A stretch of DNA of 12,369 nucleotides from IMG/VR virus record IMGVR_UViG_2698536477_000001, one strand, 5' to 3'. The translations under genes and the position numbers were made by a program. Below, piece after piece: positions 248-6,916 of this stretch. The first letter of the stretch is position 1; each line of letters begins with the position of its first letter. Below the pieces are notes generated by a model. That model worked only from the letters and a program-made list of their open reading frames with translations. It searched no databases and had not been told where the DNA came from. The stretch is from a virus (Duplodnaviria; Heunggongvirae; Uroviricota; Caudoviricetes).

Positions 248-1738
248 GTGATTGGCGTTTTTTCACCAGGATGGAAAGCGGCAAGGCTGCGTTCCCGTGC
301 GGTGATCCAGGCTTATGAGGCCGTAAAAACGACACGGACACACAAAGCCCGGCGGGAAAACCGAACTGCCGACCAGTTAAGCCAGTACGGGGCCGTGTCG
401 TTACGTGAGCAGGCCCGTTACCTTGATAACAACCACGATCTGGTTATTGGTGTATTTGACAAGCTGGAAGAACGGGTGGTGGGGAAAAACGGGATTATTG
501 TCGAGCCACATCCGGTATTACGCAATGGGGCCATTGCCCGTGATCTGGCAGCGGAGATACGCACCCGATGGAGTGAATGGTCTGTCAGTCCGGAAGTCAC
601 CGGGCAGTTTACCCGTCCGATGCTGGAACGTCTGATGCTGCGTACCTGGCTGCGCGATGGTGAGGTGTTTGCCCAGATGGTTTCCGGGCGCATAAACAGC
701 CTGACGCCTTCTGCCGGTGTTCATTTCTGGCTGGAGGCGCTCGAGCCGGACTTTATTCCCATGACCAGTGATGAGAGCAACAGGCTGAATCAGGGCGTGT
801 TTGTTGATGACTGGGGGCGTCCCGAAAAATATCTGGTGTATAAAAGCCGTCCCGTATCCGGGCGGCAGATGGAAACCAAAGAAGTGGATGCAGAGCGAAT
901 GCTGCATCTTAAATTTGTTCGCCGTCTGCACCAGATGCGCGGGACGTCTTTGTTGTCCGGTGTGCTGATCCGCCTCAGTGCCCTGAAAGAGTATGAAGAT
1001 TCTGAGCTGACTGCAGCAAGGATCGCCGCTGCTCTGGGGATGTACATCCGGAAAGGCGACGGGCAGAGCTATGAACCGGATGGTAATGGCAGCAAGGAGA
1101 ATGAACGCGAGCTTACCATTCAGCCAGGCATTATTTACGACGATCTGAAACCCGGCGAAGAAATCGGAATGGTGAAGTCGGATCGTCCCAATCCTAACCT
1201 TGAAACTTTTCGTAATGGTCAGTTGCGTGCCGTGGCGGCGGGCAGTCGTCTGAGTTTTTCCAGTACGGCACGCAACTATAACGGCACTTACAGCGCCCAG
1301 CGTCAGGAGCTGGTTGAATCCACTGATGGCTACCTGATCCTGCAGGACTGGTTTATTGGTGCCGTCACCCGCCCGATGTATCGTGCCTGGCTGAAACAGG
1401 CTGTGGCATCCGGTGTTATCAGGCTACCCCGCGATCTTGATCGTTCTTCACTGTATACCGCGGTGTATTCCGGACCGGTGATGCCGTGGATTGACCCTGT
1501 TAAGGAGGCTGAGGCCTGGAAAATTCAGATTCGTGGTGGAGCGGCGACAGAATCAGACTGGGTACGTGCAGGTGGTCGTAATCCGGATGATGTCAAACGT
1601 CGGCGCAAGGCCGAAATTGATGAAAACCGCAAGCTGGATCTGGTATTTGATACCGATCCGGCCAGTGATAAAGGAGGCAGCAGTGCCGCAACGAAACGAC
1701 AGGAGCCGCAGCACACCGACGACCAGTCCGAAGAATAA
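248..1738 (+). CDS. Phage portal protein (lambda gpB-type family), 496 aa as drawn from GTG 248; native start probably lost or displaced by the IS insertion
   Basis: Long + ORF at the head of a head-gene module. Segments such as LREQARYLDNNHDLVIGVF, the acidic Asp/Glu-rich C-terminus, and a size near 500 aa fit lambda-type portal proteins. The frame opens only at 239 (TAA 236-238 lies inside the IS end), with no in-frame ATG or Shine-Dalgarno near the 5' end. Confidence 0.8.
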   Translation: MIGVFSPGWKAARLRSRAVIQAYEAVKTTRTHKARRENRTADQLSQYGAVSLREQARYLDNNHDLVIGVFDKLEERVVGKNGIIVEPHPVLRNGAIARDLAAEIRTRWSEWSVSPEVTGQFTRPMLERLMLRTWLRDGEVFAQMVSGRINSLTPSAGVHFWLEALEPDFIPMTSDESNRLNQGVFVDDWGRPEKYLVYKSRPVSGRQMETKEVDAERMLHLKFVRRLHQMRGTSLLSGVLIRLSALKEYEDSELTAARIAAALGMYIRKGDGQSYEPDGNGSKENERELTIQPGIIYDDLKPGEEIGMVKSDRPNPNLETFRNGQLRAVAAGSRLSFSSTARNYNGTYSAQRQELVESTDGYLILQDWFIGAVTRPMYRAWLKQAVASGVIRLPRDLDRSSLYTAVYSGPVMPWIDPVKEAEAWKIQIRGGAATESDWVRAGGRNPDDVKRRRKAEIDENRKLDLVFDTDPASDKGGSSAATKRQEPQHTDDQSEE

Positions 1739-1751
1739 TTCCTGGTTCAGG

Positions 1752-3710
1752 ATGCAGGCAGGTCACCAGAGTGACGCGGATATTTATATTTATGACGAGA
1801 TTGGTTTCTGGGGTGTTACAGCGAAGCAGTTTATCAGTGATCTGAATGCACTGGGCGATATCACCCACATTAATCTCCATATTAATTCACCGGGTGGCGA
1901 TGTCTTTGAAGGCATCGCCATTTTTAATGCACTGAAAACACATGGTGCGTCCATTACCGTTTATGTCGACGGTGTGGCGGCGTCAATGGCGTCGGTCATT
2001 GCGATGGTGGGAAACCCGGTCATTATGCCGGAAAACTCCTTCATGATGATTCATAAACCATTTGGCTTTACGGGCGGTGATGCGGAGGACATGCGCACCT
2101 ATGCCGACCTGCTCGATAAAGTTGAGGCGGTTCTGTTACCCGCTTATGCACAGAAAACCGGGAAAACCACCGATGAAATTGCTGCCATGCTGGCGGATGA
2201 GACCTGGATGTCCGGTGCCGAATGTCTGGCACAGGGATTTGCTGATCAGGTGACACCAGCCGTTAAGGCAATGGCATGTATTCAGTCAAAACGTACAGAG
2301 GAATTTAAAAAGATGCCGGAATCCATTCGAAACATGATTACTCCGCCACGCAACAGTGCTCCACGCGTACAGGATGATGAACCTGCAGCCTCCCGGACGC
2401 CAGTGCAGGCAGCAGCACCCGTGGTGGATGAAAACAGTATCCGTGCGCAGGTACTGGCAGAGCAAAAAGCGCGTGTAAACGGTATTAATGATCTGTTTGC
2501 CATGTTTGGCGGGCGTTATCAGACGCTGCAGGCCCAGTGTCTTGCCGATCCTGAATGTTCGCTGGAGCAGGCCCGTGAAAAGCTGTTGAACGAGATGGGG
2601 CGCGAGTCCACGCCATCCAATAAAAATACCCCGGCTCATATTTATGCCGGTAACGGTAATTTTGTGGGGGACGGGATTCGCCAGGCGCTGATGGCGCGTG
2701 CCGGATTTGAAAAAACCGAACGTGATAATGTCTACAACGGGATGACCCTGCGTGAATATGCCCGTATGTCACTAACTGAACGGGGTATTGGGGTTTCCGG
2801 TTATAACCCGATGCAGATGGTCGGTGCGGCGTTCACACACAGTACGTCTGACTTCGGTAATATTCTGCTGGATGTTGCGAACAAAGCCATTCTGCAGGGC
2901 TGGGAAGATGCCCCTGAAACCTATGAACAGTGGACGCGGAAAGGTCAGTTGTCTGATTTTAAAATTGCCCATCGTGTGGGTATGGGGGGCTTCAGTGCTC
3001 TACGTCAGGTGCGTGAAGGGGCGGAATATAAATACGTCACCACCGGAGATAAACAGGCCACTATTGCACTGGCGACCTATGGCGAGCTGTTCAGTATCAC
3101 CCGTCAGGCCATTATCAATGATGATCTGAATATGCTGACCGATGTCCCGATGAAACTGGGCCGTGCGGCGAAATCCACTATTGCCGATCTGGTTTATGCC
3201 ATTCTGACGTCTAACCCGAAAATCTCCACAGATAATGTAAGTCTGTTCGATAAAGCGAAACATGCAAACGTACTGGAGAGCGCTGCAATGGACGTGGCAT
3301 CGCTGGATAAAGCCCGCCAGTTGATGCGCGTTCAGAAAGAGGGGGAGCGTCATCTGAATATTCGTCCTGCGTTCGTACTGGTACCGACGGCGATGGAGTC
3401 TGTTGCTAACCAGGTCATTCGCTCCTCAAGTGTCAAGGGGGCTGACATTAACGCCGGTATTATTAACCCGGTGAAAGATTTTGCGACCGTTATTGCAGAG
3501 CCTCGTCTTGATGATAACAGCCAGACCACCTTCTACCTGGCTGCGTCAAAAGGCTCCGATACGATTGAAGTGGCTTATCTCAACGGTGTGGATACGCCAT
3601 ATATTGATCAGATGGAGGGCTTCAGTGTGGATGGCGTGACAACGAAAGTGCGTATTGACGCCGGTGTCGCGCCAGTTGATCACCGCGGTCTGGTGAAATG
3701 TACGGCGTAA
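1752..3710 (+). CDS. Head maturation protease (ClpP/S49-like) fused to major capsid protein, 652 aa from ATG 1752; frame is open upstream to 1491
   Basis: N-terminal region DIYIYDEIGFWGVTAKQF...INSPGGDVFEGIAIFNALK...VYVDGVAASMASVIAMVG...MMIHKP has the ClpP-like serine protease fold signature (GG...S-M-A-S). A Pro/Ala-rich and coiled linker follows, then a C-terminal ~300 aa capsid-like domain. It sits directly after the portal, and I recall this fused arrangement from Gifsy-type and EHEC lambdoid prophages. ATG 1752 follows the portal stop at 1736-1738. Confidence 0.8.
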   Translation: MQAGHQSDADIYIYDEIGFWGVTAKQFISDLNALGDITHINLHINSPGGDVFEGIAIFNALKTHGASITVYVDGVAASMASVIAMVGNPVIMPENSFMMIHKPFGFTGGDAEDMRTYADLLDKVEAVLLPAYAQKTGKTTDEIAAMLADETWMSGAECLAQGFADQVTPAVKAMACIQSKRTEEFKKMPESIRNMITPPRNSAPRVQDDEPAASRTPVQAAAPVVDENSIRAQVLAEQKARVNGINDLFAMFGGRYQTLQAQCLADPECSLEQAREKLLNEMGRESTPSNKNTPAHIYAGNGNFVGDGIRQALMARAGFEKTERDNVYNGMTLREYARMSLTERGIGVSGYNPMQMVGAAFTHSTSDFGNILLDVANKAILQGWEDAPETYEQWTRKGQLSDFKIAHRVGMGGFSALRQVREGAEYKYVTTGDKQATIALATYGELFSITRQAIINDDLNMLTDVPMKLGRAAKSTIADLVYAILTSNPKISTDNVSLFDKAKHANVLESAAMDVASLDKARQLMRVQKEGERHLNIRPAFVLVPTAMESVANQVIRSSSVKGADINAGIINPVKDFATVIAEPRLDDNSQTTFYLAASKGSDTIEVAYLNGVDTPYIDQMEGFSVDGVTTKVRIDAGVAPVDHRGLVKCTA

Positions 3711-3734
3711 ACGTCGCAGACAACAACTCTGATG

Positions 3735-3753
3735 GCCCGTAAGGGCTTTTTTT
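3735..3753 (+). terminator. Candidate intrinsic terminator (partial) after the capsid gene
   Basis: GCCC-GTAA-GGGC stem-loop at 3735-3746 followed by seven T at 3747-3753, 25 nt after the capsid stop. The stem is short (4 bp), so read-through is likely. Confidence 0.45.
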
Positions 3754-3796
3754 GTACCTGAAATCAGCCCCTGAACGGGGCTGTGCGGAGACAGTT

Positions 3797-4120
3797 ATGG
3801 CAAAGAATTTTGTAGAAGAAGGAAAAACGGTGGCGATTGTTGCCAGTGCAGCCATCAGCAGCGGAGATCTGGTGCAGGTGGGCGATGTTTTTGCGGTGGC
3901 GCTGACCGATATTCCACAGGGTGAAACAGGCGACGGCATGACCGAAGGTGTGTTTATGCTGCCTAAGCTGAAAACGGATGACATGAAAACGGGTAAGAAG
4001 GTTTATCTGAAGTCCGGAAAAGTTCAGCTGACTAACAGCGGCTCTGATCCGCTGGTCGGGGTTGTCTGGGCAGATGCCGGAACCAGTGCAGAAGAAGTGC
4101 CGGTAAAACTCAATGTCTGA
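3797..4120 (+). CDS. DUF2190-family small head protein (predicted capsid decoration/cement-type protein), 107 aa
   Basis: ATG 3797 has a GGAG Shine-Dalgarno at 3787-3790. The motif pattern ...GDLVQVGDVFAVALTDIPQGETGDGMTEGVFMLPK...GKKVYLKSGKV... matches the conserved DUF2190 pattern usually encoded next to phage capsid genes. The ORF-track start at 3752 is an upstream in-frame extension without an RBS. Confidence 0.7.
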   Translation: MAKNFVEEGKTVAIVASAAISSGDLVQVGDVFAVALTDIPQGETGDGMTEGVFMLPKLKTDDMKTGKKVYLKSGKVQLTNSGSDPLVGVVWADAGTSAEEVPVKLNV

Positions 4121-6131: not shown

Positions 6132-6152
6132 CAGGACGATACTCATCATTTG

Positions 6153-6175
6153 CCCCGGTTATCCGGGGCTTTTTT
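6153..6175 (+). terminator. Candidate intrinsic terminator downstream of the major tail gene
   Basis: CCCCGG-TTAT-CCGGGG perfect 6-bp GC stem at 6153-6168, followed by C and TTTTTT at 6170-6175, 22 nt after the V stop. Confidence 0.6.
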
Positions 6176-6188
6176 GCAGGTGGAGAAC

Positions 6189-6578
6189 ATGATGTTTCTG
6201 AAACAGGGCACGTTTAATTATGAAAAGCAGTCCGTGGTGCTCAGTGAGCTGTCCGGGCTGCAGAGAATTGAATATCTGGCGTTTGTTCAGCAGCGAACGG
6301 CAAAGTTTGATGCCGAAGAGGGAGAACTGCCGGAGGCTGAACGACAGATTGCTTTTCTGCGGATGGGGATGGATATCAATGCCTGGCTGGTTTCCCGCTC
6401 ACTGTGGAATGCGGAACAGTCTCAGGATGTTGAGACGCTTTGCGCATCCGTTATTACAACATGGTCGTATGATGCCCTGGGAGCGGGGGCGGAGATGGTT
6501 CTGTCGCTGAGCGGTATGGGAGTCATTGAGAATGCCGGGGATTTGGAGCATGAGGTGCTGACGCCGGAAAAGTCCTGA
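6189..6578 (+). CDS. G: Tail assembly chaperone, lambda gpG homologue (129 aa from ATG 6189; ATG 6192 equally possible)
   Basis: GGAG Shine-Dalgarno at 6183-6186. Shares MFLK...V.LSELS.LQRIE.LA..., LW and EQEVLT-type elements with lambda gpG as remembered. The ORF-track start at 6150 lies inside the terminator hairpin and is unlikely. Confidence 0.88.
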   Translation: MMFLKQGTFNYEKQSVVLSELSGLQRIEYLAFVQQRTAKFDAEEGELPEAERQIAFLRMGMDINAWLVSRSLWNAEQSQDVETLCASVITTWSYDALGAGAEMVLSLSGMGVIENAGDLEHEVLTPEKS

Positions 6579-6916
6579 CGCGGGAAATGCAGTTTGTCAT
6601 GCGGCTTGCCCGGGAGTTCCGGCGGGCAGACTGGCGGCGGATGCTGTCGGAAATGTCGGCCACTGAGCTTGGTGAGTGGGGCGATTATTTCCGGATGCAG
6701 AGCTTCAGTGATGTGTGGATGGATGCGCAGTTTGCCTCGCTGAAGGCATTGATCGTGAGAATGGTGTCCGGTAGCAGTGATGCTGCGGTGGCTGATTTCA
6801 GCCTTTTACCGGAAGAGAACGGGATACCGGAGCGAACGGACGAAGAACTGATGCATCTTGGGGAAGGTATTTCCGGAGGTGTGCGTTATGGACCAGATAG
6901 CCAACCTGGTCATTGA
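6554..6916 (+). CDS. T: T segment of the tail assembly chaperone gpGT, expressed only as a -1 frameshift extension of G (the ATG at 6587 is probably not an independent start)
   Basis: An ORF in the -1 frame begins just before the G stop and ends overlapping the start of the tape measure gene, the conserved lambda G/G-T architecture. No Shine-Dalgarno precedes ATG 6587. Confidence 0.8.
   Translation, partial: GADAGKVLTREMQFVMRLAREFRRADWRRMLSEMSATELGEWGDYFRMQSFSDVWMDAQFASLKALIVRMVSGSSDAAVADFSLLPEENGIPERTDEELMHLGEGISGGVRYGPDSQPGH
6566..6572 (+). other. Candidate -1 programmed ribosomal frameshift site linking G to T (heptamer G GAA AAG)
   Basis: The T frame is -1 relative to G and is open only from 6554 (TGA 6551-6553), so the shift must occur between 6554 and the G stop at 6576-6578. 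The only slippery-looking sequence in that interval is ccGGAAAAGtcc. Confidence 0.6.

Follow-up and report, generated by a model that had tools for sequence, protein, structure and literature searches.

A ClpP-like protease/major capsid protein fusion gene of enteric prophages and a candidate internal start for a protease-free product

When a head-maturation protease, a scaffold-like segment and the major capsid protein are encoded in one uninterrupted reading frame, does every capsid subunit bring its own protease, or is a second, protease-free protein made from the same gene? This question is raised by a 12,369-nt stretch of DNA from a virus of the Caudoviricetes (IMG/VR record IMGVR_UViG_2698536477_000001), referred to here as the window. 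The initial annotation of the locus described a single polypeptide joining an N-terminal protease of the ClpP/S49 type, a middle part rich in Pro and Ala and predicted to be helical, and a C-terminal capsid domain, set this arrangement against the separate C, Nu3 and E genes of lambda, and proposed that joining the two in one polypeptide fixes the protease:capsid stoichiometry.

A curated fusion family and its 5' end

The open frame runs without interruption from position 1482 to the stop codon at 3708-3710, with a lambda-type portal gene on its 5' side and a decoration gene on its 3' side (Table 1). Residues are numbered with the ATG at 1752 as residue 1, which gives a count of 652 aa. Profile searches matched both halves of the protein, the N-terminal one to Pfam CLP_protease (residues 23-168, E 4.6e-36) and the C-terminal one to Pfam Phage_capsid_4 (residues 357-649, E 1.4e-54), so that the joining of protease and capsid protein in one polypeptide is confirmed. 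The protease domain also matched NCBIfam NF045542 (Clp_rel_HeadMat; residues 9-167, 217 bits against a cut-off of 120), and matches to solved ClpP structures extended down to E 8e-16. The catalytic triad Ser78 (TCA, 1983-1985), His101 (CAT, 2052-2054) and Asp149 (GAT, 2196-2198) is present, aligns with the active-site motifs of ClpP and is invariant in 33 homologues (alignment A1). The only S49-type match was to SppA, with 21.8 bits against a cut-off of 155. The protease is thus ClpP-like (S14), and the S49 part of the earlier label falls away.

The middle part has the character first ascribed to it, with a Pro/Ala-rich stretch (residues 196-225), a helical segment (226-283) and a second linker (284-296). 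Structure prediction of the 652 residues with the 33-sequence alignment gave a mean pLDDT of 42 and a pTM of 0.23, too poor to define a fold or domain boundaries; segment 226-283, with three predicted helices, was the only part of the model with a pLDDT of 76-85. The capsid domain was also matched by Mu-like_gpT (33.5 bits against a cut-off of 20.1) and, in profile searches of solved structures, by 8rkx/8rkc (E 1.5e-11) and 9jod (E 4e-8). Searched as a single sequence, the capsid part matched solved structures only weakly (E 2.5e-4). The best match among the solved structures was a distant Mu GpT-type protein, and nothing close to this capsid family was found there. The N-terminus of the mature capsid protein can be bracketed at about residues 285-365, the profile matches to solved capsids being only partial, and residue 1 of the solved Mu GpT-type proteins extrapolates to about residue 366. 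The maturation cleavage that would free the capsid protein probably falls within 2601..2819. Release by proteolysis is itself a reasonable expectation from the orthology with Gifsy-2.

The fusion protein belongs to a family that is already known, curated and very common. NCBIfam NF045540 matched with 986 bits against a cut-off of 475, residues 9-651 corresponding to positions 2-651 of the 652 in the profile, and PHROG 133 aligns with the protein from end to end. [quoted passage not shown] In RefSeq its product is called 'ClpP-like prohead protease/major capsid protein fusion protein'. Of 5426 complete E. coli genomes, 2017 contain the gene, and 16 isolated phages carry the intact ORF at 99% identity; over the fusion gene, mEp460, cdtI, phi458, Ayreon, Tritos and HannyBb are 98.7-99.4% identical in nucleotide sequence. 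When viral contigs were scanned with alignment A1, all matches came from nearly identical E. coli prophages and were of no use for measuring conservation; the diversity was supplied by a species-level genome collection. There, a single ORF was present in 81 loci from Enterobacterales, Pasteurellaceae, Shewanella and Pseudomonas. Naming of the fusion gene is inconsistent in current annotations, among the six coliphages listed above (protease, scaffold, Nu3, major head protein) and more widely (terminase as well), and many annotations also carry a wrong start.

Where does the full-length gene begin? The initial annotation had placed the start at ATG 1752. No Shine-Dalgarno (SD) sequence was found upstream of this codon, and the equivalent residue is Met in only 47 of 78 homologues and Ile or another non-Met residue in the other 31. 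A W[F/Y] motif encoded 5' of this position is kept in all 78. The GTG at 1683 is preceded by AAGGAGG, for which the anti-SD duplex energy is -11.6 kcal/mol, and an identical copy of the gene in RefSeq is annotated with the upstream start. Because of this SD, the conserved W[F/Y], the variable Met1 and the RefSeq start, GTG 1683 is most likely the start codon. The AAAGGAGGCA..GTG layout was also seen in mEp213 and in an Stx2d phage. With this start, the 5' end of the fusion gene shares 56 nt with the end of the portal gene.

The gene order on both sides is also that of relatives. The portal gene has the same place in Gifsy-2 and Pseudomonas phage MD8, as has the decoration gene, which is labelled 'head decoration protein' in MD8. 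In RefSeq the decoration gene starts at the equivalent of 3797 and its product is named a DUF2190 protein. The terminator-like hairpin that follows the fusion gene has a counterpart in the mEp213 record, where a rho-independent terminator is annotated at the equivalent place.

Table 1. Features of the fusion gene and its neighbours, in coordinates of the window
Feature	Position	Strand	Details
Lambda-family portal protein gene	248..1738	+	Directly upstream; Pfam Phage_portal_2, E 6e-82
Shine-Dalgarno AAGGAGG of the long form	1671..1677	+	5 nt 5' of GTG 1683
Full-length fusion gene (ClpP-like protease, scaffold-like middle, major capsid protein)	1683..3710	+	675 aa, ~73 kDa; start most likely GTG
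ATG of the initial annotation	1752..1754	+	Probably an internal Met codon
ClpP-like (S14) head-maturation protease domain	1776..2255	+	Residues 9-168
Internal Shine-Dalgarno-like motif GAGGA	2298..2302	+	10 nt 5' of ATG 2313
Proposed internally initiated scaffold-capsid product	2313..3710	+	Putative; 465 aa, 50.7 kDa, starting Met188-Pro189
Variable Pro/Ala-rich linker	2337..2426	+	Residues 196-225; length and sequence differ among homologues
Conserved helical scaffold-like segment	2427..2600	+	Residues 226-283; kept in both clades
Second variable linker and conserved segment (IYAGNGN...)	2601..2819	+	Residues 284-296 and 297-356; alignment blocks
Major capsid protein domain	2820..3698	+	Residues 357-649
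Terminator-like hairpin GGCCCGTAAGGGC followed by T7	3734..3754	+	24 nt past the stop codon; terminator scan
Head decoration/cement protein gene	3752..4120	+	Directly downstream; Pfam Phage_cement_2, E 1.4e-20

A conserved candidate initiation signal at Met188

At the sequence level, the fusion gene has the layout of a nested gene, with an in-frame ATG at 2313 (codon 188) preceded by a ribosome-binding motif of its own. This ATG and the Pro codon that follows it (ATG-CCN) are invariant in 81 of 81 homologues, which span 53-99% identity. An RGGA-type motif precedes the ATG in all 81, and the amino acid pairs that it encodes differ (EE, ED, QE, KD, KE, ME, GD). Among 45 representatives, the first codon of the motif was NAG in every one, against a mean NAG usage of 0.46 (p ~3e-17 when the sequences are treated as independent, a value overstated by their relatedness). 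The anti-SD energy was -5.5 kcal/mol or lower in all 45 representatives, compared with about 10% of other codon positions. The spacing between motif and ATG in enteric sequences (10-11 nt) is above the optimum. Five other conserved Met codons of the gene were examined in the same way and none shows the NAG or anti-SD signal.

The surrounding mRNA is also distinctive. Identity at synonymous codons peaks at codons 176-183, just 5' of the ATG, and the ten least structured of 638 45-nt mRNA segments all lie at codons 184-194, which is also the region of lowest GC in the fusion mRNA. As a positive control, the start of lambda Nu3 was found to have an SD energy of -6.9, similar to that of ATG 2313. 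The Nu3 initiation region is not unstructured, so the low-structure signature is to be read as supportive and not as required. In the NF045541 family, a second type of fusion, 22 of 25 sequences have a Met at the junction with RGGA 7-9 nt upstream.

These patterns make it fairly likely that ATG 2313 is used as a start codon and yields a scaffold-capsid protein free of the protease. The proposal that the fusion fixes the protease:capsid stoichiometry is then probably wrong: the conserved initiation signal at Met188 implies a second, protease-free product, so that a pair of start sites probably governs the ratio, in the manner of lambda C/Nu3. No mention of an internal start in this gene was found in the literature searched (the original Gifsy-2 paper, outside that literature, may report one), and no such annotation was noticed in the records of mEp460, cdtI, phi458, Ayreon, Tritos and HannyBb. 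If the internal start is used, it alters the assembly model of a very common type of prophage head, including those of long-tailed phages carrying Stx2 and cdt. Protease dosage would then be set by two start sites, and not by one protease per capsid subunit.

Could the same conservation serve the protein instead? The full-length chain may be the only product, each subunit bringing protease and scaffold in a 1:1 ratio, with Met188 and the purine motif conserved as a cleavage or docking site. The single uninterrupted ORF and its strong 5' ribosome-binding site agree with this reading, and a conserved processing site at Met188-Pro189 is conceivable. However, the motif is kept as nucleotides while the residues vary (as the uniform NAG codon illustrates), nowhere else in the mRNA are structure and GC content as low as around Met188, and NF045541, whose protease is unrelated, has the signal too. 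A constraint on the protein alone predicts neither the nucleotide conservation, nor the low structure and GC, nor the recurrence, and for this reason a single product is considered unlikely.

It has been proposed that E. coli ribosomes pause at SD-like sequences inside genes, an effect that is disputed. A programmed pause at Met188, with no initiation, could slow translation at the domain boundary and assist folding of the protease, and the motif does lie precisely in the stretch that separates the protease domain from the linker. This leaves unexplained the invariant ATG-CCN that follows the motif by 10-12 nt in all 81 homologues, as well as the unstructured, AT-rich region centred on the ATG, which is typical of initiation regions. 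Such a pause is thus a very improbable account of the signal. The signal was also considered as a relic of an ancestral layout with two genes, and this was rejected since synonymous sites would drift across lineages of 53% identity without selection. Finally, that protease and capsid genes were merged by a sequencing error, a frameshift or prophage decay, the merger that the initial annotation named as grounds for doubt, has a negligible probability and is already refuted by the comparative data, namely the intact ORF in the 16 isolated phages, the 2017 E. coli genomes and the 81 loci across genera, and the existence of curated full-length profiles.

A proposed assembly pathway

Taken as a whole, the combination of Gifsy-2 orthology, gene fusion, internal start and the pathway outlined here is the best explanation of the locus, and we consider it likely. 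The sequence data show the domains, the catalytic triad, membership of the family, the orthology and gene order, and that both start signals are conserved; that the internal start is used, how much of each form is made, where cleavage falls and how the head assembles are inferred. Translation from GTG 1683 would give a 675-residue chain composed of the ClpP-like protease with its Ser-His-Asp triad, a scaffold-like middle (the Pro/Ala linker, the three-helix segment and a conserved segment of 60 residues) and a major capsid protein whose sequence is related to those of solved HK97-type (Mu GpT-like) capsids. Ribosomes would also initiate at ATG 2313 and produce a 465-residue scaffold-capsid protein without the protease. 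The long and short forms could then assemble together on the lambda-type portal, giving a procapsid in which their N-terminal parts point inward. As a minority component, the long form would carry the protease into the procapsid, as lambda gpC does through the sequence that it shares with Nu3. The protease would next cut off the protease and scaffold parts and leave a capsid protein of ~32-39 kDa. DNA packaging would be accompanied by expansion of the shell, to which the decoration protein encoded downstream would then bind.

Comparison with known systems

This type of gene was first studied in Gifsy-2 (Effantin et al. 2010, Virology 402:355). The Gifsy-2 protein (STM1033 region) is 69% identical over its full length and is built alike, from a ClpP-like protease through a central part to the capsid protein. 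Its neighbours are alike as well, with terminase, a small gene, a lambda-type portal, the fusion gene, a decoration-type gene and homologues of gpZ/U/V/G. Met188-Pro189 is also present in Gifsy-2, together with a GAGGAG motif. The two genes differ at the 5' end, where Gifsy-2 starts with ATG and not GTG, and have diverged mostly in the linkers. The Gifsy-2 capsid is reported to have T=7 geometry and to have been modelled with the HK97 capsid protein and lambda gpD.

In Pseudomonas phage MD8, the protease, scaffold and capsid protein are encoded in a single gene, gp5, and an internal start is not discussed in the paper describing it (PMC8508860). The gp5 protein is 57% identical to the fusion protein over its full length and shares the conserved Met with an AGGAG motif. 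It differs in belonging to another host clade and in having a longer linker, with 693 aa in total. Protease, scaffold and capsid are also joined in one gene in small-genome actinobacteriophages (PMC7302621). The hosts of these phages are unrelated, and their sequences are apparently unrelated as well.

The proposed internal product corresponds to HK97 gp5 with its delta domain, that is, to a scaffold-like part, cut away by the protease, followed by the capsid protein. In HK97, however, the protease is a separate gene of another family, whereas here no stop codon lies between the protease and the rest. The delta domain has 102 residues, compared with ~110-170 for the corresponding part here, and the HK97 shell is stabilised by crosslinks, whereas the phage of the window encodes a decoration protein. 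The module also has a relative in NF045541 (e.g. Ralstonia phage YO135_4), in which a homologous scaffold-capsid part begins at about residue 200 (residues 197-201 of the protein of the window) with 31% identity. The junction Met and ribosome-binding motif are alike in the two families, but the N-terminal protease of NF045541 is unrelated. The protein of the window falls outside NF045541, with 402 bits against a cut-off of 525 and a match to residues 197-649 only.

In lambda, the C gene overlaps the portal gene and begins with a GTG that has a strong SD in front of it, and the Nu3 scaffold is made from an ATG within C, in the same frame; a lambda-type portal and a decoration protein are likewise encoded beside the fusion gene of the window. 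The lambda protease is of the S49 type, and E is a separate gene with D between Nu3 and E, whereas the frame of the fusion gene runs on through the capsid protein. The contrast with separate C, Nu3 and E genes drawn in the initial annotation stands, all three functions lying in one frame. The fusion gene would resemble C/Nu3 in its working, yet it is no member of that system, with its ClpP-like protease and the capsid protein in frame. On balance the gene appears to encode a nested pair, in which the Met188 product is presumably the main building block and a smaller number of tethered proteases come from the long form started at GTG. The lambda C/Nu3 strategy would thereby be extended into the capsid gene itself, in two fusion families with unrelated proteases.

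Organization of the window and the fusion gene

The head-and-tail half of a lambdoid prophage makes up the window, and every gene lies on the plus strand.

Features of the window (fusion protein residues are numbered from ATG 1752, 652 aa, as in the initial annotation)
Feature	Position	Strand	Remarks
Small W-like gene		+	first in gene order
Lambda-family portal gene	248-1738	+	directly before fusion gene
Fusion gene, corrected (most likely start)	1683-3710	+	675 aa; SD, W[F/Y] conservation, RefSeq start
Variable Pro/Ala-rich stretch	residues 196-225		
Conserved helical segment	residues 226-283		
Second variable linker	residues 284-296		
Conserved segment	from residue 297 on		
Decoration/cement gene	3752-4120	+	directly after fusion gene
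Head-tail joining genes, then gpZ, U, V, G/T homologues		+	after decoration gene
Tape measure gene	6858-9953	+	after G/T
M, L, K and I homologues		+	after tape measure gene

The reading frame that contains the fusion gene is uninterrupted between 1482 and its stop codon at 3708-3710. The initial annotation had placed a single ORF at 1752-3710; the single ORF and its end stand, and the start is to be moved. No ribosome-binding site lies upstream of ATG 1752, and this position is Met in just 47 of 78 homologues. An AAGGAGG sequence is found five bases before GTG 1683 (anti-SD energy -11.6 kcal/mol), a W[F/Y] motif between the GTG and the ATG is kept in 78/78 homologues, and the RefSeq start on an identical copy is the upstream one. 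GTG 1683 is thus the most likely start, which places the first 56 nt of the gene (1683-1738) within the 3' end of the portal gene, in a different frame. Lambda C is laid out in the same way: it begins with GTG behind a strong SD (-12.0) and overlaps B. In many phage records, the ATG equivalent to 1752 is given as the start of the fusion gene instead. The portal start itself is uncertain. GTG 248 is the first in-frame start within the window; RefSeq starts a related copy at the equivalent of position 230, where the window has no start codon, so the two sequences differ there.

The description of the protein as a protease, a Pro/Ala-rich and helical middle part and a capsid protein is correct. 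In Pfam, CLP_protease covers residues 23-168 (E 4.6e-36) and Phage_capsid_4 covers residues 357-649 (E 1.4e-54), and a match to Mu-like_gpT also exceeds the Pfam cut-off. Residues 31-173 match solved ClpP structures (E down to 8e-16), with the AASM and IH(K/Q)P motifs inside the alignment. The catalytic residues Ser78, His101 and Asp149 are unvaried across 33 homologues from two clades. The middle part alternates variable and conserved blocks; the structure model (mean pLDDT 42) is of good confidence only at residues 226-283. The profile of the C-terminal part finds Mu GpT-type capsid proteins of solved structure (8rkx/8rkc, E 1.5e-11; 9jod, E 4e-8). If the alignment is extrapolated, their first residue falls at about residue 366, not far from 357, where the Pfam capsid match begins. 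No close relative of the capsid part (2640-3707) was found in the Protein Data Bank copy; the Mu GpT-type proteins, its best matches there, are distant and align in two short stretches only. They are also arranged differently: the Mu-type protein has about 85 extra middle residues, and the window capsid part has about 70 more C-terminal residues.

Other features were observed in the surrounding genes. Between the capsid and decoration genes, a terminator-like hairpin is followed by a T7 run (3734-3754), where a rho-independent terminator is annotated in the mEp213 record; the hairpin could reduce expression of the genes that follow the capsid gene. A lambda G/GT-type pair of tail assembly chaperones occupies 6150-6916. 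The G frame stops at TGA 6576-6578, and a slip in GGAAAAG (6566-6572; GGGAAAG in lambda) would reach the T frame, which is -1. In RefSeq, G and T each have a gene of their own. AT skew is strongly positive (0.37 and 0.22) within the tape-measure gene (8501-9500), with the rest of the window well below.

Probable start signal at the protease-linker junction

Met188-Pro189 marks exactly the point where the protease domain gives way to the linker. The pair is unvaried in 81/81 homologues, always with an RGGA-type purine motif 10-12 bases before the Met188 codon. The residue pairs encoded by this motif differ (EE, ED, QE, KD, KE, ME, GD). Codon and anti-SD statistics were obtained from 45 representatives with mutual identity below 85%. 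The first codon of the motif is NAG in all 45 (GAG 32, CAG 7, AAG 6), against a mean NAG usage for Glu/Lys/Gln of 0.46 in the same set; the joint probability of 3e-17 assumes independence, and hence overstates the significance. Phylogenetic relatedness is ignored in all of these conservation statistics. The anti-SD duplex energy at Met188 is -5.5 kcal/mol or better in 45/45, a value reached at about 10% of other codon positions and at none of five other conserved Met codons in these representatives. In a smaller set, synonymous-codon identity over 8-codon windows peaks at codons 176-183 (0.77, vs 0.47 for the whole gene). The ten least structured 45-nt mRNA windows, of 638, all fall at codons 184-194, which are also the lowest-GC region (z = -2.2). 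As a control, the lambda Nu3 start, which is established by experiment, gave an SD energy of -6.9, similar to that at Met188 (-6.0). Translation probably also starts internally at Met188, as judged from these sequence features.

The same signal is found in a second fusion family, NF045541, in which an unrelated protease is joined to a homologous scaffold-capsid module (compared sequences L089, at 1829-3922, and L170-L198). In 22 of 25 sequences, RGGA precedes a Met at the corresponding junction by 7-9 nt; in Ralstonia phage YO135_4, for example, the junction reads GAGAGAGGAAAACACC-ATG. A metagenomic viral contig (L196, 58-1911) is mosaic, with a ClpP-type protease fused to an NF045541-type scaffold-capsid module. 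The junction is therefore a recombination boundary at which protease and capsid modules have been exchanged.

Proposed products of the fusion gene

Most likely, two products would be made from the fusion gene: a long form of about 73 kDa (652 residues with a computed mass of 70.7 kDa, and 23 more) and a scaffold-capsid form of 465 residues (50.7 kDa). Sequence comparison establishes the domains, the place in the family and the fact that both start signals are conserved. We infer that the internal start is used, as well as the ratio of the two forms, the cleavage sites and the following pathway. Both forms would assemble together on the portal, N-terminal parts inward, and the tethered ClpP-like protease would then cut off the protease and scaffold parts. 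The remaining capsid protein, of about 32 kDa (start near residue 357) or 39 kDa (start near 297), would form the shell; once this has expanded, the decoration protein would attach to it.

The main alternative, proposed in the initial annotation, is a single-product fusion that fixes protease and capsid at 1:1. This would agree with the intact ORF, but it fails to account for the conservation of the RGGA-type motif as nucleotides, the unstructured mRNA window and the recurrence of the signal in NF045541. The initial observation is thus confirmed with a corrected start, and its interpretation is partly supported.

Relatives of the fusion gene

An artefact, in which a frameshift or the assembly had merged two genes, is rejected, since the same intact ORF occurs in several independent collections: at about 99% identity in 16 isolated phages (including mEp460, cdtI, phi458 and Ayreon), in 2017 of 5426 complete E. 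coli genomes (RefSeq product name 'ClpP-like prohead protease/major capsid protein fusion protein'), and at 81 loci from Enterobacterales, Pasteurellaceae, Shewanella, Ferrimonas, Psychromonas and Pseudomonas. The VT1-Sakai copy is interrupted by IS629. Phage records name it variously as protease, head-tail preconnector protease C, Nu3, scaffold protein, major head protein and even terminase.

The fusion gene as such is already known and very common. It matches the Gifsy-2-type family NF045540 end to end (NCBIfam, 986 bits vs a cut-off of 475), as well as PHROG 133. The nested start would be a modest, testable addition to this family, and may have been reported before in the original Gifsy-2 paper (Effantin et al., 2010). 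Effantin et al. are cited in a later paper (PMC8538268) as the source for a decoration protein that sits as a trimer at the threefold axes. Along its whole length, the Gifsy-2 gene shares 69% identity with the window gene, and its neighbours are the same. The gene of Pseudomonas phage MD8, 57% identical to the window gene, has been described as specifying all three of protease, scaffold and capsid protein (PMC8508860), and similar fusions have been noted in small actinobacteriophages (PMC7302621).
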